From an uncultured Acidobacteriaceae bacterium (GTDB lineage: Bacteria > Acidobacteriota > Terriglobia > Terriglobales > Acidobacteriaceae): DNA of 64,000 bases. The DNA is taken from NCBI GenBank assembly GCA_963824315.1, contig CAWGOX010000010.1, positions 50,308 through 114,307 of the forward strand, given 5' to 3'. Shown here piece by piece: positions 11,735 through 52,867 of the stretch. Numbering within the stretch: position 1 is the first letter of the stretch; the number at the start of each line of letters is the position of its first letter. The translations under genes and the position numbers were made by a program. The notes beneath the pieces were generated by a model that was not told where the DNA came from, searched no databases, and was given only the letters and a program-made list of their open reading frames with translations.

Positions 11735-12634
11735 CTAACTTCCTGAGTTGACCATCATCAGAGCAAACAGCGCGGGCAGATAGATCACAGTGGCTCGAAG
11801 TAGCCGGCGGGCCGACGGTTTCGACGCGGGTGCAGTGACCGCAAGTTGTGGATAGGCCATTCCCATTGATACACGGAATAAGGCGGCGCCCATCAGGACG
11901 GCTCCAATTAAATACAGTCGTCCAGCCATCCCCATCGCGACTGGCAAGAGGCTCACCGGAATCAATGCGGCGGAATATGCCAGGATTCGCCACACGGTGG
12001 ATTTTCCGTCGGACTCAACGACAGGCAACATTCGAATCTCGCCTTGCGCGTAGTCCTCGCGATACAGCCATGCGATCGACAAGAAATGGGGAAACTGCCA
12101 GACAAACATGATGGCAAAAAGAATCAGGGCTTCGGGATCGAGTTGCCCGCGCGCTGCCGTCCAGCCGAGGACCACCGGCATGGCGCCTGGGAAAGCTCCC
12201 ACAAATGTGCACACGGGAGAAATTTTCTTAAGGGGTGTATACGCGGCGAGGTATGTAAGCGATGTCAGGAAAACTAATATGCCAGTGAGTAGGTTCGCAT
12301 ACACGACGAGGTAGATTGACCCACCCAATGTCAGGACGAGTCCAACGATGACCGCACGGATTTTCGTCATGCGTCCTGCAGGAAGAGGTCGCATTGCGGT
12401 GCGACGCATTCGTGCATCCACTTTTGATTCGATCACTTCGTTCAACGCTGCGGTGCCGCTGGACACCATCGCTACGCCAAGCAGCGCGTGAACGAGGCCG
12501 AGCGACCACGAGGAGACGCCCATGCGGTGGGCGCCGAAAAAGTATCCCGCCCACGCGGTTAGCACGATGAGAGTCGTGACTCGCGCCTTAGTCAATTCTG
12601 CGTAGTCGCGGAGCAACGAAATTAAATTATGCAA
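11735..12634 (-). CDS. ctaB: protoheme IX farnesyltransferase (heme O synthase)
   Basis: UbiA-family polytopic membrane protein with a NEVIESKVDARMRRT motif (NxxxDxxxD-like). It has the typical CyoE/CtaB length and lies adjacent to a cytochrome oxidase cluster. Confidence 0.9.
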   Translation of the reverse strand: MHNLISLLRDYAELTKARVTTLIVLTAWAGYFFGAHRMGVSSWSLGLVHALLGVAMVSSGTAALNEVIESKVDARMRRTAMRPLPAGRMTKIRAVIVGLVLTLGGSIYLVVYANLLTGILVFLTSLTYLAAYTPLKKISPVCTFVGAFPGAMPVVLGWTAARGQLDPEALILFAIMFVWQFPHFLSIAWLYREDYAQGEIRMLPVVESDGKSTVWRILAYSAALIPVSLLPVAMGMAGRLYLIGAVLMGAALFRVSMGMAYPQLAVTAPASKPSARRLLRATVIYLPALFALMMVNSGS

Positions 12635-12707: not shown

Positions 12708-14066
12708 CTAGTCCGTGCCTCCTGCCGCAGGCACGCTGAAGGTTTCGGGTGGATCAAAATAGCATTGGTGCCACAAGGCAGCATCCGACAATGAGCCCGC
12801 CTTCCATTGCTGGACGGTCGAGAGCGTGGCGGCAATCATGCCGCCGTCAATGGAATCGAAAATCAATACGATCCCGGAAAGTTCTTGCGCTCTAGCGGCC
12901 AAGTCCCCGTAATTCTTGTCGATCAGAGACTTGGCATATTCCAATTTCGCTGGCGCCCCACTATCTTTTTCGTTCTCCTGGATCTTCTGCACTGAAATTA
13001 TTTTTACGTTCTTGCCTCGGAGCGGACCCCAGTCTCCTGGGAAGGGCGCAGTCTCTTCTCTCGTTACTTGAAACAGGTCGGCCGCGACCAGCTTGGACTT
13101 CGCGACACTCTGCGGGATGTCGGAGATACCCTCCGGCATTTCCAGGCTGGTGCGCCAGATCCAGCCGCGGGACAAGCCTGAAATTCGTACGTGGACCCAA
13201 TCAGCATTAAAGTCCAACATCTCAAACTCATCATGAGCGCTGGCTAAAAATAAATTCTTGCCGTTCAGACTAGGCGAAGCGACCACTGGAGTTCCTGATT
13301 TCTTAACTGCGACCAAGTTTTTTGGGTGCGCCTGATTCTTCAGAACATCTTCTAAGCTCGTCGCCTCGGTTTGTAGAGCCGTTTGTGCGGGGTCCGCCGG
13401 CTTCAGCGAATTTTTTGATTCGGCTAACTGTTGGGCTGACAATCCCTGTCGTATTTCTAAAGGAGGGTTTGAAAATGGGCGGTTGCTATCTGGAGTGGTA
13501 GCGGCAGAAGTAGTGGGAGCAGAAATCTCAGATTGCGGAGTCGCGATTTCCGCGTTCTGATTGAACTTGCTTTTCCCTATCGGAGTCGTCGCGCTCGCGC
13601 TGCTGGTTAAGGCCTCACTCAATTGATCCAAGAGATCGGATTCGAGTCGGCCATTCGACGTCACCAGTTGGTATCCCGCGCGCGATGCGACGGGGTCGGC
13701 ATACCAGGCCGTCACTTTCGTATTCACACGAACGAGAGATCCACCGGAGGCCGTCGCTGTCACCTGCACTGCGGATTGATAGAACGCGCGCTGGTAGCGG
13801 CTCAACGGATGCTCGCCCGGAAGCGCGAAACCCTCTAGAGCCGGCAATCGTCCGCTCATTGAAGATTGCAGGTCTTTGAGTGCGCGTTCCACCACGACCT
13901 TCGGCTGACGGTAAGTACGCTCGTGAGTGTCGGTAGCGTCACTCCGGCTGGCATCGTTGGAATGAGTTTGCGCATCGCTCTTTTTTCCACAAACGATCGC
14001 GGTCACCGTCCACAGCAGCAACGGGATCATGACCATAGCGAACCTTGCTGGGCGGGGCTGCTTCAT
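12708..14066 (-). CDS. hypothetical lipoprotein-like secreted protein with a C-terminal bacterial SH3-like domain
   Basis: The start ATG at 14066 overlaps the upstream stop (ATGA). The signal peptide has a TAIVC lipobox-like site. There is a Ser/Thr/Pro linker and an SH3b-like segment DFNADWVHVRISGLSRGWIWRTSLEM. Confidence 0.6.
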   Translation of the reverse strand: MKQPRPARFAMVMIPLLLWTVTAIVCGKKSDAQTHSNDASRSDATDTHERTYRQPKVVVERALKDLQSSMSGRLPALEGFALPGEHPLSRYQRAFYQSAVQVTATASGGSLVRVNTKVTAWYADPVASRAGYQLVTSNGRLESDLLDQLSEALTSSASATTPIGKSKFNQNAEIATPQSEISAPTTSAATTPDSNRPFSNPPLEIRQGLSAQQLAESKNSLKPADPAQTALQTEATSLEDVLKNQAHPKNLVAVKKSGTPVVASPSLNGKNLFLASAHDEFEMLDFNADWVHVRISGLSRGWIWRTSLEMPEGISDIPQSVAKSKLVAADLFQVTREETAPFPGDWGPLRGKNVKIISVQKIQENEKDSGAPAKLEYAKSLIDKNYGDLAARAQELSGIVLIFDSIDGGMIAATLSTVQQWKAGSLSDAALWHQCYFDPPETFSVPAAGGTD

Positions 14067-15205
14067 GGCAACTGCTCCAACTGCTCGCGAAGGATCCATC
14101 CGTGCTGGCCATCGTGAGTTTCGACGCCATACCAATAGGTGGTGGAGATGACGATGAGGACTTCAGCACCGGGTTCCAACGATTTCAGGGTATTTGCTGT
14201 GTGGAATGGAGCGGCCTTTAAAGGCGCCCCCGGATTTTTCACCAACCGTTCGACTTGGTGACGCAACTCCACAACATGCTGTTCGAGCGATACCGGGGAG
14301 TCGTAGGAGTAGTTCAGCAGAGGAGCAACCGGTGCGGAGGGCATAGTGTCCGCGGGTGCGCCTGGATTGCTGCTACTGTACATCGCAGTGGCGGGAGGCG
14401 TACTCAATAACACCGTGTCGTTATTGCTTGCCGAAGTTTCTGCCGGTCTGTTTTGTTCTCCCGACTCGTTGGGCGACCCGCCAGTCCCGACCAAGCCAAA
14501 TTGTTTCTTTGCCGCGTACTCTTGTTTCTGGCGCAATGCCTCCGCGGTTTCTTTCTTCATCAGCTCTGCTGCTTCCAGTTTCGACTCGATGTCCTGATAC
14601 TCGTTGCTCTCAACCGAGCCATTGGATTGATGCGTGGCGTGGCGATAGTCCTCAACAAAAATTGCGTCGATGCGGAGAACAGTATTCTGATTGCCTTGCG
14701 GTTGTACGACGTAGCGCACCGCGAGAGTTCCTACATCGCCGCTGTCTTTAAAGTTTCGCGGATCGAGAGCCTGCAGTCGTACCTTGTAGAAGACCTTGCC
14801 ACCCTCTGTCCAAGTTGGAAACACGGAGGTACTCGGGACTGACGTGGCTCCCGAAACGAACTCATCCTTGTTGTACTCCTTGGTGCCTCGGATGATGGTG
14901 TTCTGTGCGACCTCCTCTACCACCTTGACGACTTCCGGCTCGGGATGAGGGATATTGACGATCAGTCCCGCTCCGTACTCCAGCACATCTTTTTCTCGGC
15001 CGTAGGCTGGGATCGTCGCGAGACACAAGAGAAAGAATAGGGCGGTGAGTTGGGGCAAAGCACGAAAAATTACGTTAAATCGGGAGGAATTCACGCAGCC
15101 GTCCAGATCCTTACCGCGAAAAATCTCGTCCCAATTCACGACTGGCTCCGCTGATGGTGCGTATTCCTGTTGCAGAGTCTCATACACAGGGTCGATTGCT
15201 GTCAA
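14063..15205 (-). CDS. hypothetical membrane-anchored protein with a C-terminal bacterial SH3-like domain
   Basis: Internal hydrophobic anchor LTALFFLLCLATIPAYG, a coiled-coil/low-complexity linker, and a C-terminal LIVISTTYWYGVETHDGQHGWILREQLEQL (SH3b-like). The architecture parallels the downstream gene. Confidence 0.6.
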   Translation of the reverse strand: MTAIDPVYETLQQEYAPSAEPVVNWDEIFRGKDLDGCVNSSRFNVIFRALPQLTALFFLLCLATIPAYGREKDVLEYGAGLIVNIPHPEPEVVKVVEEVAQNTIIRGTKEYNKDEFVSGATSVPSTSVFPTWTEGGKVFYKVRLQALDPRNFKDSGDVGTLAVRYVVQPQGNQNTVLRIDAIFVEDYRHATHQSNGSVESNEYQDIESKLEAAELMKKETAEALRQKQEYAAKKQFGLVGTGGSPNESGEQNRPAETSASNNDTVLLSTPPATAMYSSSNPGAPADTMPSAPVAPLLNYSYDSPVSLEQHVVELRHQVERLVKNPGAPLKAAPFHTANTLKSLEPGAEVLIVISTTYWYGVETHDGQHGWILREQLEQLP

Positions 15206-15474: not shown

Positions 15475-16881
15475 ATGCGTATGTGGGCGCAGTCTTACCT
15501 CTGCCAGAAATCGCAGCGCGTTTCTTCCATCCTCGCCGCTGCTTTCGCGTTCATCTTTCTGATTCTGGGTTCGAGCCAGCAGGCCAACGCGATCCCGGCC
15601 TTCGCCAGAAAATATGGTTTGCGCTGCTCAGCCTGCCATGAAAGTTGGCCGATGCTGAACTTCTTTGGACAAAAGTTCAAAGACAACGGCTATCAGTTGA
15701 TGAATGATCGTGATTCGCCGATTTGGCAGAATCCAGGCTACTGGCCGATTACGTTCCGCATCCTTCCTGTCTGGCATCGGATCAGCACCAACAAGGTTGC
15801 GACCGACCAGAGCCCGACCGGGGAGCAGAAGATCACTTCTTCTGGATTTGACCTTAGCGGTCTGGACTTCCACACTGGCGGCACCCTCGAGAAAAATTTC
15901 TCCTTCTACGTTCTCCCCTCCTCTGACGCAACCGCATCCTTCCACTTTGAAACCGTTATGGCGAGGCTCGACAACGTTGCGGGTAGTTCGTGGTTGAACG
16001 TAAAGTTCGGCAAGTTCGAGCTGGACAATCTGCTTTCCGAGAAACGCATTCTGACGCTGACCGGAAATGGCGGTATCTATCAGCTCTATCACTTCATTCC
16101 TGCTGGCGATGGAAACGTCTTCGGTCAAATGGGAGACAACCAGCTTGGCGTCGAGGTGATGGGTCACTCCTACAACGACAGAACCCGTTATTCGGTAGCT
16201 CTGTTGAGTTCGAACGATGGACAGGTTGGCTTGCCGTACGGCGCCGAATCCTATTCCACGTTCATTACCGCAAGTCAGGCATTCGATGCTGGCAGACTTG
16301 GCGTGGATCGTGTCGGCTTCTACTTGATGGCCGGTCAAGCACCGACCGGTTGGCTCACCACTGGCGGCGCCCCAATACCCGGATCGGGCTACAACAATAA
16401 GGGCTACAGTCGTGAAGGCTTCGTTGGACAGTTCTACTTCGGGCAGCATGTTGACGTGACAGTCGTTACTCAGCACGGCGAAGACAGCGCATGGTTTGGC
16501 CAAGGTTACGGAGATTTGGTCGACGGGGTCGCAACCCAGAACAACATTCCGGGCGTTTCTGTGCTCCCGATGGGTTCGCGAAATCCGACCTGGAATGGCG
16601 TTCTCGTCGAGCCACACTACGTAGTAAGTCCGCAGATGATTTTGTTGGCACGATACGAAACGATTCGCATGTCGCAGCAATCCACACCGGGATCGCCATC
16701 GGATCTCGGAAATGTCACGACCTACACAGCTGGCTTCCGTTACAACCCATTTATGACGAGCCGGGCGGGCTTCGCGTATCACGGCGAGTACAACTTGTTT
16801 CATCAGGTCGGTACCGCGCCTGATGGATCTACCAACTTGAACAGCAGTGAACTCTTATTTGGATTCGACTTCGACTTCTAA
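15475..16881 (+). CDS. Cyc2-like fused monoheme cytochrome c / outer-membrane beta-barrel porin (putative)
   Basis: GAGGAG lies 5 nt before the ATG. The signal peptide ends in QQANA. The mature N-terminus is IPAFARKYGLRCSACH, with a single CxxCH at 15625-15639. The remaining 410 aa or so are rich in alternating Gly/aromatic beta-strand-like segments and end in FGFDFDF, with a terminal Phe as in an OMP beta-signal. Confidence 0.6.
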   Translation: MRMWAQSYLCQKSQRVSSILAAAFAFIFLILGSSQQANAIPAFARKYGLRCSACHESWPMLNFFGQKFKDNGYQLMNDRDSPIWQNPGYWPITFRILPVWHRISTNKVATDQSPTGEQKITSSGFDLSGLDFHTGGTLEKNFSFYVLPSSDATASFHFETVMARLDNVAGSSWLNVKFGKFELDNLLSEKRILTLTGNGGIYQLYHFIPAGDGNVFGQMGDNQLGVEVMGHSYNDRTRYSVALLSSNDGQVGLPYGAESYSTFITASQAFDAGRLGVDRVGFYLMAGQAPTGWLTTGGAPIPGSGYNNKGYSREGFVGQFYFGQHVDVTVVTQHGEDSAWFGQGYGDLVDGVATQNNIPGVSVLPMGSRNPTWNGVLVEPHYVVSPQMILLARYETIRMSQQSTPGSPSDLGNVTTYTAGFRYNPFMTSRAGFAYHGEYNLFHQVGTAPDGSTNLNSSELLFGFDFDF

Positions 16882-16918: not shown

Positions 16919-16945
16919 GTAGATTTCGGTTGAAGGGTGCTGACC

Positions 16946-17899
16946 ATGTCTAGCTCGACTATGAACTGCTTGAAGCCAATGCGATTTATCTGCGCGATTG
17001 TTTTCACCGCAATCGTGAGCGTGGCACTTGCCTCTGCACAGGATGCGCCCGACGTGGGCCCCAAGCCACCGCTTGCGGTCAAACCGATGGAGAGCCACAT
17101 CGGCAACCTCACCGGACACTCCGAGAGCGCGAAGTCTGACTATCGTCGCTACTGCGCGGGCTGTCATGGGGATTACGGCGATGGCAACGGCGAGAATGCG
17201 GTTTGGCTCGATCCGAAGCCGCGCGACTTCACGATCGCGACTTTTAAGTGCCGGTCCACGTTGACCGGAACGCTGCCTACGGACCAGGATCTTTACAACA
17301 CCATCCAGCGCGGCCTGACTAATTCGAACATGCCGATCTGGAATACGTTTTCCAAGCAACAAAGAGCTGATCTCGTCGCTTACTTGAAGATTTTCTCGCC
17401 ACGCTGGTCGACGGAGAAAGCGGGAGAGCCAATTAAGATTCCCGCCGAGCCGCCGGTCACGATGGATAGCATCGCCCACGGCAAGCTCCTGTTTACAAAG
17501 TTGGAATGCTGGAAGTGTCACGGTCCACATGGTGAAGGTGATGGGCCATCCGCCGCGACTCTTACTGACAGCAAGGACAATCCGATTCGTCCTTACAACT
17601 TCGCACTGGGCAAAGATGACTCGCGCTTCAAGTGTGGAAACACGAATGAGGACATCTACAAAATCTTCATGACGGGTGTGGATGGAACGCCGATGCCATC
17701 ATTCGCGGACGTAATTCAGCCCAACGACGCATGGGATCTCGTCCATTTCCTGCGCACGTTACAGGTTCATCGTCACAGCAAGGAGAATGAAATCTTATCT
17801 GCTGCGCACGGAGTGATTCCGCCGTACGTCGATAAGAATCCGCCACCAGCAGCCGCTCCTGCCCCCGCCGACAACAAGGCGCCCGGCGGAACACGGTAA
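16946..17899 (+). CDS. diheme c-type cytochrome, secreted
   Basis: Two CxxCH motifs (CAGCHGDYGDGNG and CWKCHGPHGEGDG), each followed by a Met-containing distal segment (NMPIW, TPMPSF). The signal/anchor is MRFICAIVFTAIVSVALASA. The start is chosen at the ATG 8 nt after GAAGGG; the track start is 16937. Confidence 0.85.
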   Translation: MSSSTMNCLKPMRFICAIVFTAIVSVALASAQDAPDVGPKPPLAVKPMESHIGNLTGHSESAKSDYRRYCAGCHGDYGDGNGENAVWLDPKPRDFTIATFKCRSTLTGTLPTDQDLYNTIQRGLTNSNMPIWNTFSKQQRADLVAYLKIFSPRWSTEKAGEPIKIPAEPPVTMDSIAHGKLLFTKLECWKCHGPHGEGDGPSAATLTDSKDNPIRPYNFALGKDDSRFKCGNTNEDIYKIFMTGVDGTPMPSFADVIQPNDAWDLVHFLRTLQVHRHSKENEILSAAHGVIPPYVDKNPPPAAAPAPADNKAPGGTR

Positions 17900-17963
17900 G
17901 CTAGTTGCGGAATGGATTGTTACAGATTCATTGCAAATTAAAGACCCCCGAAGGAGTTCTCGA

Positions 17964-18665
17964 ATGCGCTCGAAGCCAGTACTACTCGCTCTTTTGACTT
18001 TCTTGGCTTGTTCCTCTCTGATGTTCGGCGGAACGGTCAAGGGCAAGGTGACCTACACGGGGACGCCTGCCAGGCAGAAACCAATTGACATGTCCAAAGA
18101 GCCGAGCTGCGCCAAGCAGCATGCGACTCCCATTACCACGGAGTCGGTGGTAACCGGTGCCAACAATTCGTTAGAAAACGTCGTAGTGTACGTTTCGGCG
18201 GGTGCGCCGGACGAGAGCGCGGCACCGTCGCAGTCAATCACGTTCGAACAGAAAGGTTGTCAGTATATTCCGCACGTGCTGGTGATGCGCACCAATCAGG
18301 AATTTAAGATCCTCAACGACGACCAGACTTCGCACAACATCCACCCGCTGGCAAAGGTAAACACGGAATGGAATAAATCGCAGCCGCCCGGATCGGCGCC
18401 GATCGTTGCGAAATATGACAAGGAAGAATTTATTCCCGTGAAGTGCAATATCCATCCCTGGATGCACGGCAATTTCGTCGTTCTGAAGACCTCGCACTAC
18501 GACGTCAGTAAGTCGGGCGGCGAATTCACCCTCCCAAATCTTCCTCCGGGTAAGTACACCCTCACCGCGTGGCAAGAAGATTACGGTACGCAGACGGCCG
18601 ACGTCACGATCACCGGCAACGAGACCAAGGACGTCAGCTTCGTGTTTAAAGCGAAAGCCTATTAA
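17964..18665 (+). CDS. type-1 copper (amicyanin-like cupredoxin) protein flanked by carboxypeptidase-regulatory-like beta-sandwich segments
   Basis: GAAGGAG lies 7 nt before ATG 17964. The signal peptide has an FLAC site. The candidate copper ligand set is SHNIHP ... KCNIHPWM; the C-x2-H-x2-M spacing matches the amicyanin CTPHPFM motif. The C-terminal segment is GGEFTLPNLPPGKYTLTAW. Confidence 0.7.
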   Translation: MRSKPVLLALLTFLACSSLMFGGTVKGKVTYTGTPARQKPIDMSKEPSCAKQHATPITTESVVTGANNSLENVVVYVSAGAPDESAAPSQSITFEQKGCQYIPHVLVMRTNQEFKILNDDQTSHNIHPLAKVNTEWNKSQPPGSAPIVAKYDKEEFIPVKCNIHPWMHGNFVVLKTSHYDVSKSGGEFTLPNLPPGKYTLTAWQEDYGTQTADVTITGNETKDVSFVFKAKAY

Positions 18666-18768: not shown

Positions 18769-19572
18769 ATGGGCAAACTGTTTGCAGTGACTCTTGTCAT
18801 CATCGCGATTCTTTCCGCGATTCCTATCTTGCGACACACTTGGCCGATTCCAGAGGACATTTCGACCCACGGGCACCTGATCGATGAACAGATGTCGGAG
18901 ACGATGGCGGAAGCGGGCATCGCCTTTCTCGCGGCGCAATTTTTGCTGGCTCTGTTTGTGTGGCAATCGTCGAATCGTGCGCCTGACGCCAAGTTGAAGA
19001 GATTTCCTGGCGGTGCTACTGGGTTGGTACTGGCCGCGTTACTAGTGGTCGGAATCGAAGTGCTCGCGCTCGGAGTATTTGGAGTGAAAGCTTGGGCCAA
19101 CCAATATCTCACTCCGCCGTCCGCTGACGCTATGAAGATTCAAGTGCAGGCCGGACAGTTTGCCTACTACTTCCGCTATCCCGGGCCGGATGGAACATTC
19201 GGTGCGCTTCATCCCGAAATGATCAACGAAGGATCACAGAATTTCTTCGGCCTCGATCCCGAACACGATGCGGATTCCAGGGATGACGTCGTTGCTGCAG
19301 AGATGGCTATCCCTGTAAATAAGGAAATCCATCTGCTGATGCATGCCAAAGATGTGGGACATTCATTTTTCGTGCGTGAGTTGCGGGTACAGCAGGACTT
19401 TGTTCCGGGATTAGATGTTTCGCTCCATTTCACGGCGACCAAAGTCGGCAAGTACGAAATCGTCTGCACGCAACTTTGCGGACTGGGTCACTACAACATG
19501 AAAGCGTATCTCGAAGTGATGTCGCAGGCGGACTTCGATGATTGGATGAAGAAAGAACAGGCTCTGCAGTAG
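18769..19572 (+). CDS. coxB: cytochrome c oxidase subunit II (no fused cytochrome c domain)
   Basis: Two N-terminal transmembrane segments and a cupredoxin domain with DVGHSFFV and the CuA motif CTQLCGLGHYNM. At 267 aa it is too short to carry a caa3-type heme c domain. Confidence 0.9.
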   Translation: MGKLFAVTLVIIAILSAIPILRHTWPIPEDISTHGHLIDEQMSETMAEAGIAFLAAQFLLALFVWQSSNRAPDAKLKRFPGGATGLVLAALLVVGIEVLALGVFGVKAWANQYLTPPSADAMKIQVQAGQFAYYFRYPGPDGTFGALHPEMINEGSQNFFGLDPEHDADSRDDVVAAEMAIPVNKEIHLLMHAKDVGHSFFVRELRVQQDFVPGLDVSLHFTATKVGKYEIVCTQLCGLGHYNMKAYLEVMSQADFDDWMKKEQALQ

Positions 19573-19630: not shown

Positions 19631-21415
19631 ATGCACGACATGGCGGCGCATGCGGCGCAACATCATACGGCTCCGACAAGTTTCATCCGGAAGCACGTGT
19701 TCAGCCTGGATCACAAAGTAATCGGCAAGCAGTATTACGCCTTGGCGCTGGTCGCTGCTCTGGTGGGAATGGCGCTTTCGTGGCTGATGCGAATCCATTT
19801 GGCTTGGAACAGCGCTGCCATTCCTGGACTGCAATTGCTCTCGAAGACCGGCGCCCCCGGCGGAGTGATGACTCCGGAATACTACCTCCAACTGATGACC
19901 ATGCACGGCACGATCATGGTCTTCTTTGTGCTTACGACGGCGCCGTTCGCGGCGTTCGGCAATTATTTTCTGCCCATCCAGGTCGGCGCAGAGGACATGC
20001 CCTTCCCCCGTTTCAACATGATGTCCTTCTGGGTCACGTTTACGGCGTTCCTGGTGTTGGTGTCGTCATTCTTTATCGGAGACGGTCCGACACTGGGAGG
20101 ATGGACGCAATACGCTCCGCTGAATTCAGTGGGCTCGGTTGCAGGTCCGGGACAGGGAGCCGGCGTAATTCTGTGGATGATATCCATCGCGCTATTTTGC
20201 GTTGGACAGTTGCTGGGCTCGTTGAACTTTATTACGACGACGCTGGATCTTCGAGTCAAAGGCATGAGCCTGATGCGACTGCCGCTGACTGCTTGGGCAT
20301 GGTTCATTACTTCTTGCATGGGGCTAACGGCGTTTGCAGTACTCATGCCAGCGTGCATTCTCGTCATTCTCGATCACGTCGCGGGAACCAGTTTCTTCGT
20401 CGCATCGAATCTCGTGATCAACGATCAGCTGCAGCCGCACTCTGGTGGATCCACACTGCTCTGGCAGCATCTTTTCTGGTTCTTTGGACATCCCGAGGTT
20501 TACATTGCGATCGTGCCGGGCATCGGAATCGTTTCCCACATTCTGATCACCAGCATGCGCAAGCCGATGCTGAGCCAGCGCGTACTTATTTATTGCATGG
20601 GCGCTCTCGCGGTGCTCAGCTACATGGTGTACGGGCATCACATGTTTGTCAGCGGCATGAATCCTTATTCGGCGCTGGCATTTTCGTTTCCGACCTTGGT
20701 GATCACGATCCCGGCCACGATTACGGTGTTGATCTGGGTCTTTAGTTTGTACGGATCCAAGTTACGCATCAATTCAGCTTCGTTATTTTCGCTGGGATTT
20801 ATTTCGATGTTCGTCAGTGGCGGCGTCAGCGGATTCTTTCTGGCGCAGCCTTCGATCGACATTCAGTTGCATGGTACATACTTCGTCGTCGGCCACTTCC
20901 ACATGGTTATGGGCGTGGCTGCGATGTTCGGCATCTTCGCTGGAACTTATTTTTGGTTCCCGAAAATGGCTGGGCGCATGATGAGCGAGACTCTCGGCAA
21001 ACTTCATTTCTGGCTGAGCTTCGTAGGGACTTACTGTATCTTCATGCCATTCCATTATTTGGGGATGGTTGGAAACGTCCGTCGCTACGCATCGTTCGTG
21101 GACGACTATTTGCAACCGTTGATTCCGGTACATCGCTACATCACGATCGCAGCGCTTTTGACCGGCGCGGCACAGCTGATTTTTGTCTACAACCTTATTC
21201 ACAGCCGCTTCTGGGGCAAGCCCGCTCCGGATAATCCGTGGGAAGCGACTTCGCTGGAGTGGAGCACGGCTACGCCGCCTCCGTTTGATAATTTCGGCGG
21301 CAAACATCCCGTGGTGTATCACGATCCGTATCAGTACGGGGTCAAGAGTTCAGTGGGTGATTACGTGATGCAGACTTCGCCGGAGCAAGTTGCGACCGAC
21401 CACGATGAGAAGTGA
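19631..21415 (+). CDS. coxA: cytochrome c oxidase subunit I (A-family heme-copper oxidase)
   Basis: WFFGHPEVYI, GHHMFVSGM, HFHMVMG and 12 or more transmembrane segments. Confidence 0.95.
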   Translation: MHDMAAHAAQHHTAPTSFIRKHVFSLDHKVIGKQYYALALVAALVGMALSWLMRIHLAWNSAAIPGLQLLSKTGAPGGVMTPEYYLQLMTMHGTIMVFFVLTTAPFAAFGNYFLPIQVGAEDMPFPRFNMMSFWVTFTAFLVLVSSFFIGDGPTLGGWTQYAPLNSVGSVAGPGQGAGVILWMISIALFCVGQLLGSLNFITTTLDLRVKGMSLMRLPLTAWAWFITSCMGLTAFAVLMPACILVILDHVAGTSFFVASNLVINDQLQPHSGGSTLLWQHLFWFFGHPEVYIAIVPGIGIVSHILITSMRKPMLSQRVLIYCMGALAVLSYMVYGHHMFVSGMNPYSALAFSFPTLVITIPATITVLIWVFSLYGSKLRINSASLFSLGFISMFVSGGVSGFFLAQPSIDIQLHGTYFVVGHFHMVMGVAAMFGIFAGTYFWFPKMAGRMMSETLGKLHFWLSFVGTYCIFMPFHYLGMVGNVRRYASFVDDYLQPLIPVHRYITIAALLTGAAQLIFVYNLIHSRFWGKPAPDNPWEATSLEWSTATPPPFDNFGGKHPVVYHDPYQYGVKSSVGDYVMQTSPEQVATDHDEK

Positions 21416-21451: not shown

Positions 21452-22141
21452 ATGGCAACTACAGTACATGAACCGCCCAAGATCGACTCCAGCCGTTTGC
21501 CTGATGCTCAGCGTTCGGATCGAATTACGGATAATGGCGGTTGGCGAAATCTGGTTCCGGCGGGAGGAGACGTCCGGACCGCGTTCAAATATTCTCCGCC
21601 GCCATCCGCTACCGGCATCTGGGTCGTGATTTTTGCGATCACGATGATGTTCGCGGCGTTCACGAGCGCGTTGTTTGTGCGCAAGGGATCGTCTCTAGAC
21701 TGGCAGGGCTTTACGTTGCCGCCGATCCTCTATTTCAACACCCTGCTGCTTGTTGCCAGCGGAGTCACGTTGGAAATCGCGCGTCGTCGCGTGGCTACAT
21801 TCATGGGCGGTGTGAGGAGTCAGTTGGAAAGTCCTGCGCGATGGTTGTACATCACTTTGGCGCTAGGCCTACTCTTCGTGGCCGGACAGTATGTCGCCTG
21901 GTCTCAGTTGAGAGCCCGCGGACTCTATCTGGCAACGAATCCCAGCAGTTCATTTTTCTATGTACTGACTGTTACTCACGTCCTGCACGTTTTAGGTGGA
22001 CTCGGCGGACTGCTGTATGTGATCCGCAAGCTGAGTAAGTCGAACCTGCGAAGAAGCCAACTCGACGCGACGGCTCGCTACTGGCATTTTATGGGTGGGC
22101 TTTGGATTTACCTGCTCTTGCTGTTATGGGTGAAGCTTTAG
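21452..22141 (+). CDS. coxC: heme-copper oxidase subunit III family protein (copy 1)
   Basis: Multi-transmembrane protein with FFYVLTVTHVLHVLGG and ARYWHFMGGLWIYL, which are subunit III signatures. Confidence 0.85.
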   Translation: MATTVHEPPKIDSSRLPDAQRSDRITDNGGWRNLVPAGGDVRTAFKYSPPPSATGIWVVIFAITMMFAAFTSALFVRKGSSLDWQGFTLPPILYFNTLLLVASGVTLEIARRRVATFMGGVRSQLESPARWLYITLALGLLFVAGQYVAWSQLRARGLYLATNPSSSFFYVLTVTHVLHVLGGLGGLLYVIRKLSKSNLRRSQLDATARYWHFMGGLWIYLLLLLWVKL

Positions 22142-22191: not shown

Positions 22192-22812
22192 GTGAGCCAA
22201 GCGGATTTGACCATGGAAACGCACGGGACCGGACTGATGGTAGGTCCCGCGTTTTCTATTCCTACGAAAAAGCTGGCGATGTGGCTGTTCATCATCGCCG
22301 ACACGATGACATTCGCGGCGTGTCTCGTGGCTTACGGATTCGTGCGCAATGGCTCTCCGAATTGGCCACGGCCATTCCACAGCATCCTCAACGTGTCGCT
22401 GATGACTTTTATTCTGCTGACGAGCAGCTTAACGATGCTACTGGGAGTGCGGGCGGCGAGGTTGGGTGACAAAGCGGCCGCGTTCCGCTGGACGATGATT
22501 ACGGCGGCGGCGGGAATTCTATTCGCGTTGCTACATATCAGAGAATGGATGGGGCTGATCGACGAAGGCATGACGATGTTCAAGAATCCCTGGGGCACTG
22601 GACTCTTCGGCGCATCGTTCTTCACGGTTACTGGCTTGCACCTTACACACGTTACCGGCGGCATTATCGCGCTGATCGTTGTAGGGCTTCGCTACAGGGG
22701 TGGACGCTATAACGCGGACGATATCGAAATCCTCGGTCTGTACTGGCACTTCGTAGATCTGGTGTGGATGTTCGTTGTGCCGTTGGTCTACCTGTTGAAT
22801 CTTGCACACTAG
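22192..22812 (+). CDS. coxC: heme-copper oxidase subunit III family protein (copy 2)
   Basis: GTG start 4 nt after GGGAGG. Contains FFTVTGLHLTHVTGG and GLYWHFVDLVWMFV. Confidence 0.85.
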   Translation: MSQADLTMETHGTGLMVGPAFSIPTKKLAMWLFIIADTMTFAACLVAYGFVRNGSPNWPRPFHSILNVSLMTFILLTSSLTMLLGVRAARLGDKAAAFRWTMITAAAGILFALLHIREWMGLIDEGMTMFKNPWGTGLFGASFFTVTGLHLTHVTGGIIALIVVGLRYRGGRYNADDIEILGLYWHFVDLVWMFVVPLVYLLNLAH

Positions 22813-22847
22813 ATTGGAAGAGTTTGGAAAAGTCAGGAGCGAAGGCC

Positions 22848-23171
22848 ATGGCAACGACACAAGCGCAAAACGGGACCGCTGAGGGAATTGGAAAAATTCT
22901 CTTTATCTATATTTGTCTGTTGGTGTTGGCTGGTTTGCAATTTGTAATCGCCTACCAAAATATTGATACGTCGCAAATGTTGATGCGGATGATGACGGTT
23001 GCGATCATCGAAGCTGGATTGGCGGGCATGTTCTTCATGCACTTGTGGTCCGAAAAGCGCGGTTTTATGCTCTTTGTAGTGGTATTTACGGTTTTTGTTC
23101 TTCTAGCGATGCAATACGGATGGACCGATAGTTCGAGGATGGTGGTGGGAGCGCCGTTTTCAAAGTTATGA
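22848..23171 (+). CDS. coxD: prokaryotic cytochrome oxidase subunit IV-like small membrane protein
   Basis: ATG at 22848 lies 8 nt after AGGAG. Three transmembrane segments and a GMFFMHLW motif typical of the COX4_pro family. The track ORF start at 22764 overlaps coxC and lacks a ribosome-binding site. Confidence 0.65.
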   Translation: MATTQAQNGTAEGIGKILFIYICLLVLAGLQFVIAYQNIDTSQMLMRMMTVAIIEAGLAGMFFMHLWSEKRGFMLFVVVFTVFVLLAMQYGWTDSSRMVVGAPFSKL

Positions 23172-23472: not shown

Positions 23473-24861
23473 CTAAAAGAGTAACTTTCCACTATTTGAA
23501 TTCTGCTCGATGTATTTCTTGCTGTTGAATTTCTTTCCAGTGCTGGCGCCTGACATGTAGCGAATCAGCCCAAAGATAGGGCGATCAAACCAGGGCCGGT
23601 CGAATTTTCCTACGATTGACCACGCAATTCCCGCGTAGCCGTTGGGATCGCGGCCATCGAGTTCGTATTTATCATTGAGTTGTACAGCAATCTGATACGC
23701 CTGCGCTGCTGACGGGCTCCATTCCAGAATTTTTTTCGCCCAGTACATCCGCAGGTAGTTGTGCATCCAGCCAGTGTTCGTCATCTGACTTTGAGCCGCA
23801 TTCCAAAGTTCATCGTGAGTTTCGGCGTGCTCCAATTGCTGCTCGCTATAGAGAACGGGACGATCATCGTTCGCGTGCGCTGCCAAAGTACGATGGGCCC
23901 ACGGTTCTCCGCATTCAAAATTGTCGTAGTTAGGATTGAAGCGAACCAGGTTCACCGCCAGTTCCCGCCACGTAATGATTTGGTTTAGGAACGCCTCTTT
24001 GTCTTCTTTCGGAGCGTCGGCCTTTTCGACGGCCAGCGCAACCGTGATCGGACTGATATGTCCGAAGTGCAGATACGGCGAGAGGCGGCTGGTTCCGCTC
24101 AGCTCTGGTTTGTTGCGGAGGGTCGCGTAGGATTGCAATCCGTTCTTAAGAAAGTTATCCAATAATCGCAGAGCCTCTTTTGTGCCGCCGCGAAAGCCCG
24201 AGACTGGACCCACTGAAGTATCGAGCGGCCAATTCTGGGTGATATCAAATCCGGTATCAAGCGATTGAATTTCTGCGGGCTGATGCCATGCAACTTTCGC
24301 TTTCACGGTTGGGGATGCCACCAAAAAGCGCCCGAGCAACGCCTGCAATCGTGGTCGGATGATATGCGCTGCGTATTGTTCTTTCTGGAGTAGGTAGGAG
24401 GGCACGATAACGTCCGCGTCCACTGTCCACAAGGGCAGCACTAGCTTTGTTGCAGCCTTGCGCCGCCACGAGTCGAGCTCACGCATCGGATTCTCATCAC
24501 CGATCACGAGGGCAGCATTTACTTCTGTGCAGAATTTGATCAGGCTGTGTTCGGGGAACCGCCGCAGAATGAATCCGATGTTTCGCCGCTCTAGAGCTTC
24601 GGCGATGTCCGGAATGCCTTCGTTCAGGAAGCGATAGTGGCGCAGGTTGGCGTGGGGATAATAGGGGACGGGCGCGAAGAAAACGACCACTGGCTTTCCC
24701 AGTGCATTAGCGGCTTCGACCGCAACATCGAGCGCAGGATTATCCAAACCGCGCTGTGCCCGCTGCATCCAGTACACGACACAAGTGCCGTTGGGGGACG
24801 GAGGTCCTGAGCGCCGCACGGTCACGCGCGGATCGCTAGCCAGTCGACTTAGATCGTCCAA
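23473..24861 (-). CDS. phr: deoxyribodipyrimidine photolyase, class II CPD type
   Basis: VVYWMQRAQRGLDNPAL at the N-terminus. FAD-domain motifs SRLSPYLHFGHISP and WMHNYLRMYWAKKILEW, plus the C-terminal GLIRYMS. This pattern fits class II rather than class I photolyases. Confidence 0.9.
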   Translation of the reverse strand: MDDLSRLASDPRVTVRRSGPPSPNGTCVVYWMQRAQRGLDNPALDVAVEAANALGKPVVVFFAPVPYYPHANLRHYRFLNEGIPDIAEALERRNIGFILRRFPEHSLIKFCTEVNAALVIGDENPMRELDSWRRKAATKLVLPLWTVDADVIVPSYLLQKEQYAAHIIRPRLQALLGRFLVASPTVKAKVAWHQPAEIQSLDTGFDITQNWPLDTSVGPVSGFRGGTKEALRLLDNFLKNGLQSYATLRNKPELSGTSRLSPYLHFGHISPITVALAVEKADAPKEDKEAFLNQIITWRELAVNLVRFNPNYDNFECGEPWAHRTLAAHANDDRPVLYSEQQLEHAETHDELWNAAQSQMTNTGWMHNYLRMYWAKKILEWSPSAAQAYQIAVQLNDKYELDGRDPNGYAGIAWSIVGKFDRPWFDRPIFGLIRYMSGASTGKKFNSKKYIEQNSNSGKLLF

Positions 24862-24899
24862 TGAAAGCCATCCATTTGAAGTTCTTCAGGATATTCAGA

Positions 24900-25142
24900 T
24901 CACATCAACCAGGATGGCGCGACTTTCGATGCAGAGCCAATGACAATCTCGTCAAATTCGGCTCGGTTCATCTGAGTCAGGACTGCCTCAGCGTCGGTCG
25001 CTTCGCGTCTCACTCGTGCTGTTCGGAGCAGGTCGTTTAACAATCCCAAGCGACGGGTGAGATCAAGGATCAGCTCGATCCGTTGCTGGGTGGTCATTTC
25101 GCCCGCCAACTCAATTTGTGGAACTACCGGCTTTGCAAACAT
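24900..25142 (-). CDS. hypothetical protein (80 aa)
   Basis: An ORF that exactly fills the gap between the cfa-like gene and phr on the same strand. I recognise no motif. Confidence 0.35.
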   Translation of the reverse strand: MFAKPVVPQIELAGEMTTQQRIELILDLTRRLGLLNDLLRTARVRREATDAEAVLTQMNRAEFDEIVIGSASKVAPSWLM

Positions 25143-25312
25143 GAGTCACCCTTTCGCGAACACTTTTCAACTCATCCGATTTAACAGTAGATCAACCGCT
25201 CTTCACTAAGAATCAAATACTCAAAGGCTGTCGCTCTGGTTTGAATCACGCGACAATAAGTGGGGTGCCAATTGCTTTTGGAGAAAACACCTCCAGCGGC
25301 ATTCACCGCTCT

Positions 25313-26422
25313 TCAGTTGCGAAACACGTAGTGCGATACGAGCCATTCCTGGCCTCCGCGGTAACCCCATAGTTCCGCGCAAGCCATGAAAAAGACGCGC
25401 CAGTGGACGAACCAACGAAGAGTTTCTGCTTTCGCTTGTTTCAACGGAAGCCTTTTAGCATAGGTCTCAGCGAAAAGATCAAGTATCTCCGGGCGATTCG
25501 CGTCCATGTTGTTAAGCCAGGCTTCGGCAGTCTTTTGGTAGTGAGTACCGTTCACTTGCCAATGGTTTTGTAATCGCAAATCGCGCTGGAAATACAAGAG
25601 CAAATCGTCGCTCGGCATGATCCCGCCTGTAAAGAAATGGCGAGCCATCCAATCGCTTTCATCTTTAATGTCGAAGGGATAAGCAAACCGCGCATTCGTA
25701 AAAATGTGGACGAAGAGTTTGGCACCCGGTCGCATCCATGAAGAAATACGCTGTAGCAACATTTCGTAATTCCGCATGTGTTCAAACATTTCGACTGAGA
25801 CCACGCGATCAAATTTCGCGGCCGCTTCGAAGTCGTTCATGTCTGCGGTGAGGACGGTCAGGTTATCGAGACATCGCGCCTTGGCTTGGGCATCGATGAA
25901 CCGCTTTTGGGAAGAAGAATTGGAAACGCTGACAATGGTGGATTGAGGAAAGCGTTCCGCCATCGACAGAGAGAGCGATCCCCATCCGCAGCCGAGTTCA
26001 AGCACTCGCTGACCGTTGGCCAATTCCGCGCGTTCCATGGTGAGAGAGAGCATCGCTGCTTCCGCTTGATCCAGGGTAGTGGTACCGTCCTGCCATAGTG
26101 CGGAGCTGTACTTCAGGTGCTTGCCAAGTGCTAATTCGAAAAAGCGTGCAGGGACTTCGTAGTGCTGAGCGTTCGCAGCCGCAGTTTCAATCGCGATTGG
26201 CCCGTTCTTTAACTCCTGAATGAATTGCATCAAATGGGACTGCTGCATTTCCGGTGAGGCTTTGGTCTCGTCCCGCAAACGTTGACGCAGCAGACGTCGT
26301 ATGCCGGCGCGGATCAGCAAATCGGGAACCAAGTCGCGCTCGAGTAAAGCGAGGTCCCATGAACTTTCTCCCGCTCGAGAATGCGCCGATGTGGTCCGTG
26401 TCATCGTTTGTGTGTCGTTCAT
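25313..26422 (-). CDS. cyclopropane-fatty-acyl-phospholipid synthase family SAM-dependent methyltransferase
   Basis: [24 protein letters not shown], the SAM motif [11 protein letters not shown], and the FEHM and [12 protein letters not shown]-terminal signatures of the CFA synthase / mycolic acid methyltransferase family. Confidence 0.85.
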
Positions 26423-26461
26423 ATCGCAATGCCTTTCATGGCGATCATTGAAGAAGAGGGA

Positions 26462-27085
26462 TTACTTGTGGTCTTGGGTGAGCGCTGCGCTTAGACTCGC
26501 GGCCTTGGCTTCATCGAAGATGCCTTGCGATCTCCACAAGACGTCGCCATTCCGATTGACCAGAAATTCGTAGATCGTCTTTTGATCATCGATAAGAAGC
26601 GCTTCGCAAAACGGCTTCTTATCCAGATATAAAGTGATGGTGCGTTCGCGTGCATTGCGATCTGGTATGCCTCGCCGCATGCCGCTATCAATGAACCAGC
26701 GTGTGAGGGCCATCGGCCTCTCGATCGTGGGCAACTCGTAATATTGAAAGTTCAGACGACCCGAGCCTTGGTTCAGATTTTCGAATCGTTTCATTTCTCG
26801 GAGCCAGGTATCGACATCTTTTTGCTGCTCTCGCTCGAAGGCCACCAAGAGAAGATTGTTGTCGCCTTCGAAATCGGTGGGCAAATTGAAAGAACGTTTT
26901 TCGAGGTTGGATGCCGTTAGGGTGGGGAAGTGCCCCATCCGACGGCTCTCCGTCGATGCCACGGCCATGGTTCCTCCAAAATACAGCGTTAGCGTGAAAA
27001 TAATAGTCGTTATAACGACTATTATTGTGGTAGCCGCGACTTGTCTATCCTGCTTCCTTATGGTCGATAGCAGATGTTTGCTCAC
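26462..27085 (-). CDS. membrane-anchored hypothetical protein
   Basis: N-terminal transmembrane segment (ATTIIVVITTIIFTLTLYFGG). ATGA-type 4-nt overlap with the upstream DUF1295 gene. No recognised catalytic motif. Confidence 0.5.
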   Translation of the reverse strand: MSKHLLSTIRKQDRQVAATTIIVVITTIIFTLTLYFGGTMAVASTESRRMGHFPTLTASNLEKRSFNLPTDFEGDNNLLLVAFEREQQKDVDTWLREMKRFENLNQGSGRLNFQYYELPTIERPMALTRWFIDSGMRRGIPDRNARERTITLYLDKKPFCEALLIDDQKTIYEFLVNRNGDVLWRSQGIFDEAKAASLSAALTQDHK

Positions 27086-27873
27086 GCTGCTGACTTCCTA
27101 AACCATGGGACAAAGGCGCTCGTGGTCTGCTGATAGCGACGGTAGGCATCGCCCTTGCTGCGTAGCGCCTGCGCTTCGGTCGCGGGAATTCCAGTCACAC
27201 GAAAGAGGAAATAGAACATCAGCAACGGGCAGATGATGGCGAGCCATCCATAAGGAGAGGCAATGGCAAAAACTGCCCATGCCAGCCACACCAGCCACTC
27301 GAAGAAATAGTTTGGGTGCCGCGAATACTTCCAGAGTCCGCGTTGACAGACTTGTCCATTGGACGACGGATCGCGCTTGAAAGCTGCGAGTTGTGCATCG
27401 GCGATCGCTTCGCCAGCGATTGCTACCAACCAAATCGCGACGCCCACGTATTCAAGTGGCGACATCGTCGGCGCGGGATTCAGCGCAGCCATCAGGAAGG
27501 GAAGCGAGAGTACCACGTCGAGCAGTCCCTGGAATTCGAAGAACAGTAAGAACTTGAGTGGGAGGTTCGTCTTCCACTGTCGGCGCAGTTCCTGATAGCG
27601 GCCTTCTTCGGGTTCACCGACAATGCGCACCAGCAAATGAATACCGAGGCGGATTCCCCAAACCGCAGCCATCCCTGCCATCAACCATTTGCGCGCTACG
27701 AAGCCGGAACCGAGCACTGCATAGGTGACGGCTAATAGCGGTACGCCGAATGCCCATCCGGGATCAACGACGCTGGCGTTGTTAGTCCGCAGATGAACGA
27801 GCCATAGCACGAACATCATCGCCAGTACGAGCGCAGCGCCTGGCAGAACGAGATGGAGAACGGAATGGAGCAT
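27082..27873 (-). CDS. DUF1295 family membrane protein (steroid 5-alpha-reductase / ICMT-like fold)
   Basis: Polytopic membrane protein with the C-terminal RGLWKYSRHPNYFFEWLVWLAWA motif characteristic of DUF1295. Confidence 0.8.
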   Translation of the reverse strand: MLHSVLHLVLPGAALVLAMMFVLWLVHLRTNNASVVDPGWAFGVPLLAVTYAVLGSGFVARKWLMAGMAAVWGIRLGIHLLVRIVGEPEEGRYQELRRQWKTNLPLKFLLFFEFQGLLDVVLSLPFLMAALNPAPTMSPLEYVGVAIWLVAIAGEAIADAQLAAFKRDPSSNGQVCQRGLWKYSRHPNYFFEWLVWLAWAVFAIASPYGWLAIICPLLMFYFLFRVTGIPATEAQALRSKGDAYRRYQQTTSAFVPWFRKSAA

Positions 27874-27920
27874 CTAAAACCCAAGAATGCACTAGCGTAG
27901 CGGTATCAATGTCACAAACT

Positions 27921-28262
27921 CTAACGCCCGACTTTCAGAACTAGATCAGAAAGTGGCTCTTCCGATCTCAACTTAAAAAGTTGGAGGAGCACGTAACCTG
28001 ACATCGCGATATTTCCCAACGACATGATCAGGACAAACCAAACTACTTTTGCGAGCAGTCCGCGTTCTTTAAAACAGACCCAGACAAAAAATGTAAGAAA
28101 TCCAAAGTAGGCATCAAACAATGTCGCGACTGCCCAAGGGCTATCGCTCCAGCTAAATTCCGATCCGGCCAGCCGCAGGGGCTTGTGCAGGCTGACGTAG
28201 GAAGTCATGACAATCATCCAAATGAAAATGGCACCGAAGATGATTTTCAAAAATAGCCGCAT
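27921..28262 (-). CDS. small integral membrane protein, DUF1475-like
   Basis: Four predicted transmembrane segments. PWAVATLFDAYFGFLTFFVWV resembles DUF1475. The family name is from memory. Confidence 0.55.
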   Translation of the reverse strand: MRLFLKIIFGAIFIWMIVMTSYVSLHKPLRLAGSEFSWSDSPWAVATLFDAYFGFLTFFVWVCFKERGLLAKVVWFVLIMSLGNIAMSGYVLLQLFKLRSEEPLSDLVLKVGR

Positions 28263-28350
28263 AAGTTCTCAGTCCCTATTCCGAATCAAGTACGGGGATA
28301 CCCACTAATAAGTACGTCCGTGAGCGAGCTGCGGATTGTTCCCGGAAACG

Positions 28351-29271: not shown

Positions 29272-29292
29272 TCGATGGGTGGATCGTAACAC

Positions 29293-29340
29293 TGACAAGT
29301 ATAGCTGTCAATGAATTGTCATGGACAAATGATTGACAAT
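29293..29340. promoter_or_regulatory. candidate CarH/LitR operator and divergent promoter region
   Basis: Clustered TGACA/TGTCA half-sites: TGACA 29293, TGTCA 29306, TGTCA 29317, GACAA 29324, and TTGACA 29333-29338. Spacing is about 10-13 bp, and two short palindromes are present (TGACA-N8-TGTCA and TTGTCATGGACAA). The site lies between carH and the desaturase operon. Confidence 0.3.
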
Positions 29341-29418
29341 ACCTAGGGCGAGATGTACAAGAAGATGAAGGCAATCCGCAGCTAGCCCTGGAAACGTACC
29401 TGATACGAAGGGCTCAAA

Positions 29419-52661: not shown

Positions 52662-52867
52662 GTCATTTAACTAACCGGTGAGTTAAATGGAACCGGCCGG
52701 GATTACTCTCCCGGCCGGCTTCACTTTTGGTGCGCTTTTTAAACGCGCTCCGTCTGACGCGATGGCGAGCCGGTGAAATCCAGAACGAACTTTTCATCAG
52801 ATTTTCATACATCCGCCGCCTCGCCGTGGGGCTTCGGTGCGAAACTTTAAGAAGAGGCGCAAGTCTT

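Follow-up and report, generated by a model that had tools for sequence, protein, structure and literature searches.

A Cyc2-like cytochrome-porin gene at the head of an aa3-type oxidase operon in Acidobacteriaceae: a candidate intake for extracellular electrons

Can a peat or soil acidobacterium that otherwise looks like an ordinary heterotroph feed its respiratory chain with electrons from outside the cell, and could those electrons come from Fe(II)? This question is raised by a 64,000-nucleotide stretch of DNA from an uncultured Acidobacteriaceae bacterium (GenBank assembly GCA_963824315.1, contig CAWGOX010000010.1; "the window" denotes this whole stretch), in which we identified a gene for a monoheme cytochrome fused to a porin, the architecture of Cyc2. 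The gene heads an operon for an aa3-type terminal oxidase. Cyc2, through which iron-oxidising bacteria draw electrons from dissolved iron, is the main current marker gene for microbial Fe(II) oxidation, and most of its validated carriers are specialist lithoautotrophs. We consider it somewhat probable (roughly 0.55) that the locus takes up extracellular electrons through a Cyc2-family protein, most probably from Fe(II), and passes them via co-encoded carriers to the aa3 oxidase and O2.

The fused protein and its family

The gene and the parts of its product are as follows.

15475..16881, plus strand: cyc2-like gene, encoding a 468-residue fused monoheme cytochrome-porin (open reading frame, family alignments, profile match to the Acidithiobacillus ferrooxidans Cyc2 family)
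15475..15591, plus strand: predicted Sec signal peptide, residues 1-39, ending ...QQANA (sequence reading, AlphaFold2 helix 14-33)
15589..15657, plus strand: Cyc2 signature A39-IPAFARKY-GLR-C51SAC54H55-ESW-P59ML61, the predicted heme-binding site (motif of PMC8406198, conservation)
15748..16878, plus strand: predicted 16-stranded beta-barrel porin domain, residues 92-468, with a C-terminal Phe (AlphaFold2, Foldseek)

Keffer et al. (2021, mBio) recognise Cyc2 by a signal peptide, one CxxCH, two flanking motifs and a porin (PMC8406198). The first motif, AxPxFAR[Q/K][T/Y], lies just upstream of the CxxCH and is reported to be unique to Cyc2, and the second, PxL, lies four residues downstream (PMC8406198). 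The porin is poorly conserved and has 16 strands modelled on OprO/OprP, and a length filter of 365 residues was applied (PMC8406198). Every one of these features that could be tested is present in the acidobacterial protein. Its open reading frame starts with ATG and encodes 468 residues, a length beyond the filter. Residues 1-39 read as a signal peptide with a basic n-region, a hydrophobic h-region and a c-region closing on A-N-A, and AlphaFold2 places a helix at residues 14-33; the cleavage site was assigned by eye. The predicted mature N-terminus is IPAFARKYGLRCSACH, the mature end being IPAFARKYGLRCSACHESWPML by sequence reading. Cys51 is residue 12 of the mature protein and opens CSACH (C51-S-A-C54-H55), the sole CxxCH. 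A six-frame search of the window, counting open reading frames of 100 residues or more, gives only three CxxCH motifs, one in this protein and two in the next gene, indicating that the motif is not there by chance. Upstream of it stands A39-I-P-A-F-A-R-K-Y47, followed by G-L-R and then C51, and downstream H55-E-S-W-P59-M-L61, so that both flanking motifs are complete. The original prediction, made from the letters of the DNA, had described a 468-residue protein with a Sec signal peptide cleaved before I-P, its only CxxCH about 12 residues from the mature end, and a beta-barrel remainder ending in FGFDFDF, all of which our analysis bears out. The PxFARxxxxxCxxCH pattern that it had put forward proved to be the published Cyc2 motif (PMC8406198).

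The signature is conserved well beyond close relatives. Among 25 diverse full-length relatives (26-63% identical), the PxFAR...CxxCH pattern is kept in 21 and a single CxxCH in all 25, and most end in an aromatic residue, as does our protein with its terminal Phe (FGFDFDF). In the alignment, P41, F43, C51, C54, H55 and P59 are invariant among members down to about 27% identity, and L61 is nearly so. The cytochrome domain contains no conserved Met or His after the CxxCH. His231, which is at least 90% conserved, closes the barrel strand 222-231 in the sequence GVEVMGH, and could therefore be named as a candidate distal heme ligand, although this is pure speculation.

We modelled the protein with AlphaFold2 from an alignment of 60 sequences (33-85% identity range). 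The model has a mean predicted local distance difference test score (pLDDT) of 74.1 and a predicted template modelling score of 0.74, with 16 strands between residues 92 and 467. A Foldseek search of the PDB ranked OprP first (2o4v, E 1e-12) and OprO fourth (4rjx) and sixth (4rjw), which are the templates reported for Cyc2 (PMC8406198). Other 16-strand porins, such as PorB and BpsOmp38, were also matched.

We compared the protein with the validated Cyc2 of A. ferrooxidans (AfCyc2, Cluster 2). A rusticyanin query that matched PDB 1CUR at 100% was used to retrieve Acidithiobacillus contigs from metagenomes. The rus operon was recovered in this way (locus L088), and the identity of its AfCyc2 is backed by close matches to cytochrome C of Acidithiobacillus and Acidiferrobacter. 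Both proteins have a signal peptide, a motif-flanked single-heme domain and a porin of about 400 residues. BLASTP aligned them over 66 residues of signal peptide and cytochrome domain (E 2e-9, 38% identity), and hhalign matched the cyc2-like family profile to AfCyc2 alone with 96.6% probability. Profile against profile (60 cyc2-like and 48 AfCyc2-family sequences), the probability was 98.7% (E 3.8e-16), over 175 columns comprising the cytochrome domain and the first strands. Reciprocally, a hidden Markov model (HMM) of the AfCyc2 family scored 54.4 bits on the cyc2-like protein, and the cyc2-like family HMM scored up to 79.6 bits on AfCyc2-family members.

The protein has no Pfam, NCBIfam or PDB sequence match, since these libraries have no model for the family. 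Its homologues are nonetheless abundant in metagenomes, with more than 5,400 clusters at 90% identity, of which the top 120 are 79-97% identical to our protein. The named matches are all "hypothetical protein" from metagenome-assembled genomes (MAGs) of Terriglobales. An exhaustive search of 50%-identity cluster representatives yielded 2,276 matches at E <= 1e-3 and 169 at E <= 1e-30. The gene is real, conserved and widespread. Its product is very probably a Cyc2-family cytochrome-porin, as first proposed, given the signature, the 16-strand fold, the AfCyc2 profile match and the rus-like gene context described below.

The operon and its conservation

The following genes surround the cyc2-like gene.

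16937..17899, plus strand: diheme c-type cytochrome with motifs CAGCH and CWKCH (Pfam Cytochrom_C and Cytochrome_CBB3, two stretches each)
17931..18665, plus strand: lipoprotein of 244 residues with a cupredoxin-like segment and a CarboxypepD_reg beta-sandwich (Pfam, lipobox)
18769..19572, plus strand: CoxB, cytochrome c oxidase subunit II, CuA ligands present (Pfam COX2, NCBIfam CoxB best)
19631..21415, plus strand: CoxA, subunit I, an A-family heme-copper oxidase (Pfam COX1 6.7e-124, NCBIfam CtaD_CoxA best)
21452-22141 and 22192-22812, plus strand: two tandem subunit III-like genes (Pfam COX3; NCBIfam aa3_CtaE, CyoC, QoxC)
22764..23171, plus strand: oxidase subunit IV (Pfam COX4_pro, NCBIfam caa3_sub_IV)
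11735..12634, minus strand: heme o synthase, CtaB/CyoE (NCBIfam TIGR01473, 246.7 bits, cutoff 210.3)
12708-14135 and 14063-15205, minus strand: two divergent genes with weak SH3-like C-termini (weak SH3 matches only)

The plus-strand genes run in the order cyc2-like, diheme cytochrome c, cupredoxin-like, coxB, coxA, coxC, coxC' and coxD, and are separated by gaps of 31-103 bp or overlap. A promoter and terminator scan of the operon gave no signal exceeding shuffled expectation.

The diheme cytochrome is likely the periplasmic partner of the cyc2-like protein. It matches chain B of PDB 6h5l, from Kuenenia stuttgartiensis, over residues 62-275 (E 1.6e-54), with both heme motifs aligned. This chain, its closest solved relative, comes from a different organism with a different partner, and we take it to serve an HAO-like octaheme protein in electron transfer. 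The likeness says only that the neighbour of the cyc2-like gene is a soluble electron-transfer diheme cytochrome. The same protein scores 51.9 bits against the NCBIfam model for cytochrome 579 (NF033864), a distant relationship only, below the equivalog cutoff of 280. These likenesses place the periplasmic carriers of anammox bacteria, Leptospirillum and Acidobacteria in a single family.

The third gene probably starts at the ATG at 17964. Its product has a lipobox (FLAC), a Pfam CarboxypepD_reg match (1.1e-9) and a faint Cupredoxin_1 match. Residues H124, C161, H164 and M167 are invariant in 32 homologues, including the 27%-identical one of a distant relative (L100, below), and this H...C-x2-H-x2-M arrangement fits the type-1 copper ligand pattern. 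The C..H..M pattern is found in 79 of 83 loci. Profile searches of the PDB gave weak matches to the blue copper proteins 5fc9 and 1sfd over the cupredoxin-like segment. The cupredoxin call is based on the invariant ligands together with these weak profile matches, the single-sequence AlphaFold2 model having a pLDDT of only 36.5. The N-terminal strands (GTVKGKVTYTG) resemble the start of the sandwich domain, suggesting that the copper domain may be an insertion.

CoxB contains the CuA ligands (H...CTQLCGLGHYNM), indicating that the oxidase draws its electrons from a periplasmic carrier and not from quinol. We rejected a quinol oxidase on this ground and because the best NCBIfam matches are cytochrome c oxidase subunits. 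The CuA motif reads C-T-Q-L-C in place of the usual C-x-E-x-C, so that Gln stands for a Glu whose normal contacts include the Mg/Mn site. The tandem subunit III-like proteins, of 229 and 206 residues, are both kept across related loci. The heme o synthase, which is needed for the heme a of the oxidase, is encoded upstream of the cyc2-like gene and is syntenic in most loci. Between these two lie the divergent genes with SH3-like ends, which may be accessory to the oxidase or to the conduit.

Searching one genome per GTDB species, we identified at least 595 relatives of the cyc2-like protein that have the motif A[IVL]PAFARKY. The best 80 are 60-81% identical and come exclusively from MAGs, of bog, palsa, SPRUCE peat and Danish soil. 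Of these, 78 are labelled Acidobacteriaceae, Terriglobales, Terriglobia, Acidobacteriota or Ca. Sulfotelmatobacter. The remaining two, labelled Verrucomicrobiia (L071, DATHOK010000002.1) and Ca. Eisenbacteria (L076, DATJWZ010000660.1), contain the same operon at 62-64% identity, and represent either mis-binned acidobacterial contigs or lateral transfer of the whole operon. The locus is also present in closed MAG chromosomes, for example OY970205.1 and OY970281.1.

Eleven window proteins were then searched by tblastn against the best 80 loci and 4 others. Across these 84 loci the same order and orientation was found for the diheme cytochrome (84/84), the copper protein (83/84), CoxB (81/84) and CoxA (79/84), and where genes are missing the gaps coincide with contig ends. 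The upstream genes at 12708-14135 and 14063-15205 are kept in 80 and 81 of the loci, respectively.

The cyc2-like gene and its diheme neighbour stay together in three distant relatives, 37-51% identical.

P0279, 38% identity: diheme cytochrome as the only neighbour
P0325, about 50% identity: diheme cytochrome, an unknown protein and a CarboxypepD_reg protein as neighbours
P0272 (L100), 37% identity: flanked by a CarboxypepD_reg protein and, at its opposite end, by a diheme cytochrome with a cbb3-type oxidase cluster directly after it

In L100 (GCA_041481715.1, JBGPCK010000046.1, 8059-14986) the cbb3 cluster comprises FixP_N, CcoN, a FixO-cytochrome c and FixS, suggesting that the same intake module is there coupled to a high-affinity oxidase. 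The 19-kb locus also encodes CcmE and CcmF, some 5-7 kb upstream and on the other strand. The CarboxypepD_reg/cupredoxin-like lipoprotein accompanies the cyc2-like gene even in P0325 and L100. The persistence of the pair in distant relatives suggests that the conserved unit is the cytochrome-porin with the diheme cytochrome, repeatedly joined to an O2 reductase.

Electron donor, direction and purpose

In the scheme that we propose, the cyc2-like protein would be exported by Sec and would then receive its heme at C51/C54/H55. The C-terminal 16-strand barrel would insert into the outer membrane, with the short monoheme domain at or in its lumen, and single electrons would be taken from a dissolved extracellular reductant, Fe(II) being the most probable by family precedent. 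The next carrier after the porin would be the periplasmic diheme cytochrome c of the same operon, from which electrons would go to the CuA of the aa3-type oxidase, directly or through the blue-copper lipoprotein. The oxidase would reduce O2 and build proton-motive force, in parallel with the route Cyc2 -> Rus/Cyc1 -> aa3 of A. ferrooxidans. We consider it probable that the cyc2-like protein feeds electrons to the adjacent oxidase. That Fe(II) is the physiological donor has, by analogy, an even chance, and it is on the same analogy that we infer Fe(II) oxidation by this protein.

The closest parallel in gene content is the rus operon (cyc2-cyc1-cup-coxBACD-rus), which has the same order of cyc2, diheme cytochrome c, copper protein and aa3-type oxidase, and likewise a heme o synthase gene nearby. 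The individual components nevertheless differ. Cyc1 is of the c4 type, whereas the diheme cytochrome of our locus belongs to the 6h5l_B family and is only 27% identical to Cyc1 over 103 residues (pairwise E 1e-5). The CarboxypepD_reg-fused lipoprotein has no sequence similarity to AcoP/Cup, and no match to rusticyanin at E <= 0.01 was found among the eleven locus proteins. CoxA and CoxB are 31% and 28% identical to their A. ferrooxidans counterparts, and the host, a heterotroph of the Acidobacteria, differs from Acidithiobacillus, which is acidophilic and obligately lithoautotrophic. We therefore rejected a recent transfer of the rus operon; the non-orthologous carriers and the low CoxA identity point instead to an analogous assembly.

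Other Cyc2 systems offer partial parallels. The Leptospirillum chain of Cyt572 (a Cluster 3 Cyc2) and Cyt579 also leads from a Cyc2-type porin through a periplasmic cytochrome to a terminal oxidase, although our diheme cytochrome is no equivalog of Cyt579, and a published similarity network sets Acidobacteria homologues beside Leptospirillum Cyt572 (PMC10654088). With the Cluster 1 proteins of Mariprofundus PV-1, Gallionellaceae and Chlorobium ferrooxidans, our protein shares, by published description, the fused architecture, the consensus motif and the OprO/OprP-like 16-strand barrel. A further likeness is that the distant relative L100 has its gene beside a cbb3-type oxidase. The gene of our locus, in contrast to Cluster 1, is tied to a low-affinity aa3-type oxidase, in a host that is no known iron oxidiser.

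Several points weigh against the proposed uptake of electrons from Fe(II). The clade is known from sequence alone. No significant sequence match to AfCyc2 was found in the porin past about residue 200, so the homology lies mainly in some 60-175 residues; according to the literature, poor alignability of the barrel is normal for the Cyc2 family. The cytochrome segment (residues 34-89) has a pLDDT below 50, as expected without heme. The structure prediction suggested at the outset thus recovered the 16-stranded, OprP/OprO-like barrel, whereas the placement of the heme peptide in its lumen is not fixed by the model. The diheme cytochrome and the cupredoxin are not orthologous to Cyc1, AcoP or rusticyanin. 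Cyt572, the network neighbour of the Acidobacteria homologues, belongs to Cluster 3, whose function is the most uncertain (PMC8406198). Moreover, the operon resembles the core respiratory oxidase of a heterotroph, in a window with glycogen, ATP synthase and heme genes, so that the diheme cytochrome and the cupredoxin could simply join complex III to complex IV. These carriers may also serve ordinary respiration. Finally, Cyc2 homologues occur in nitrifying Nitrospirales and Mn-oxidising Ca. Manganitrophaceae. Organisms not known as iron oxidisers also have them (PMC8406198, PMC9040806), and Keffer et al. caution that a homologue distant from the three tested proteins has to be verified and could function otherwise (PMC8406198).

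These last observations bear directly on the most serious alternative, which has the same architecture and oxidase wiring serving a donor other than Fe(II), such as reduced humic or quinone compounds, organically complexed metals or Mn(II), or has the conduit running outward, with Fe(III) or humics outside the cell receiving respiratory electrons when little O2 is available. The homologues of Ca. Manganitrophaceae have been proposed for Mn(II) oxidation, published Cyc2 phylogenies include a homologue from the electrode-oxidising Tenderia electrophaga, and additional Cyc2 functions are considered possible by Keffer et al. (PMC8406198). The closest genomes to ours are, furthermore, all MAGs from humic-rich bog, palsa, peat and soil. 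However, all three biochemically tested Cyc2 members oxidise Fe(II) (PMC8406198), and it has been argued that a 16-strand porin, being narrow and having a single heme inside, passes only small dissolved species. The linkage to O2-reducing aa3 and cbb3 oxidases favours inward over outward flow. We regard this alternative as possible but doubtful.

Fe(II) might also be oxidised at the cell surface for protection and not for energy, which would keep it from the periplasm and, in acidic habitats rich in iron, limit Fenton chemistry, while a housekeeping oxidase disposes of the electrons. This would suit an ordinary-looking heterotroph with no carbon-fixation genes seen within the 64-kb window, and a gene wired to an apparent core oxidase operon in place of a separately regulated lithotrophy island. 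However, the window is 64 kb of a genome in which autotrophy remains conceivable, and electrons that travel via cytochrome c or cupredoxin to a proton-pumping A-family oxidase would conserve energy whatever the selected purpose, so the distinction between protection and energy is physiological and not mechanistic. A purely protective function appears improbable. Least credible is an ordinary diffusion porin, or a factor for oxidase assembly or heme or copper delivery, with an incidental heme motif and no extracellular electron transfer: the barrel does resemble general and phosphate-selective porins, and the gene does adjoin cofactor genes such as that for heme o synthase, but the signature around the CxxCH, reported to occur only in Cyc2 (PMC8406198), is invariant together with the CxxCH itself over thousands of homologues down to about 27% identity, and a redox protein is still the conserved partner where the gene has neither an oxidase nor a cofactor gene beside it (P0279).

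Genomic setting and significance

The rest of the window resembles the core chromosome of a heterotroph, with glycogen enzymes, ferrochelatase, F1 ATP synthase and proteases. We additionally identified a 632-residue multicopper oxidase at 52727-54625, whose best NCBIfam likenesses, PhsA and CueO, are both below cutoff, and which is a possible further metal or phenol oxidase. The region 23473-33660 contains genes for a photolyase and a MerR regulator with a B12-binding domain (a CarH-like architecture), next to one gene each of the fatty-acid desaturase, flavin amine-oxidase and DUF1295 families and two of the cyclopropane-fatty-acid-synthase family; the region may form a cluster for lipids or carotenoids that responds to light.

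Gene surveys of the FeGenie type have already listed cyc2 in Acidobacteriota MAGs (PMC10367259, PMC13594681), indicating that the protein is a new member of a known family. An Fe(II) conduit in a heterotrophic acidobacterium, which the original prediction considered notable, is to that extent less novel than it seemed, although the assignment to the Cyc2 family stands. In the searchable literature on cyc2 in Terriglobales, Sulfotelmatobacter and peat Acidobacteria, we found no account of a cyc2-diheme-cupredoxin-cox operon and no experimental test. The conserved operon context is informative, and apparently undescribed.

The cyc2-like gene is no isolated homologue, since it heads an aa3-type oxidase operon kept in 80 or more Terriglobales genomes, each of a different species, from bog, palsa, peat and soil. 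Its position in an O2-reductase operon suggests that common soil heterotrophs may also respire on iron. As a tentative extension, many abundant heterotrophs of acidic soil and peat (Terriglobales including Ca. Sulfotelmatobacter) might be facultative iron-oxidising lithoheterotrophs, whose oxidase operon has a built-in electron intake assembled independently of rus from non-orthologous carriers. The locus offers a test case for Cyc2 homologues outside Cluster 1, as close relatives are abundant where much study has been done, for example at Stordalen Mire, at SPRUCE and in Danish soils. If the function proves to be like that of Acidithiobacillus, Fe(II) could supply respiratory electrons to carbon degraders that are widespread in soil, iron and carbon turnover would be linked in peatlands, and cyc2 counts in soil metagenomes would have to be reread. 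Should the tentative extension hold, Fe(II) oxidation at the oxic-anoxic boundary of peatlands would be carried out largely by organisms never counted as iron oxidisers.

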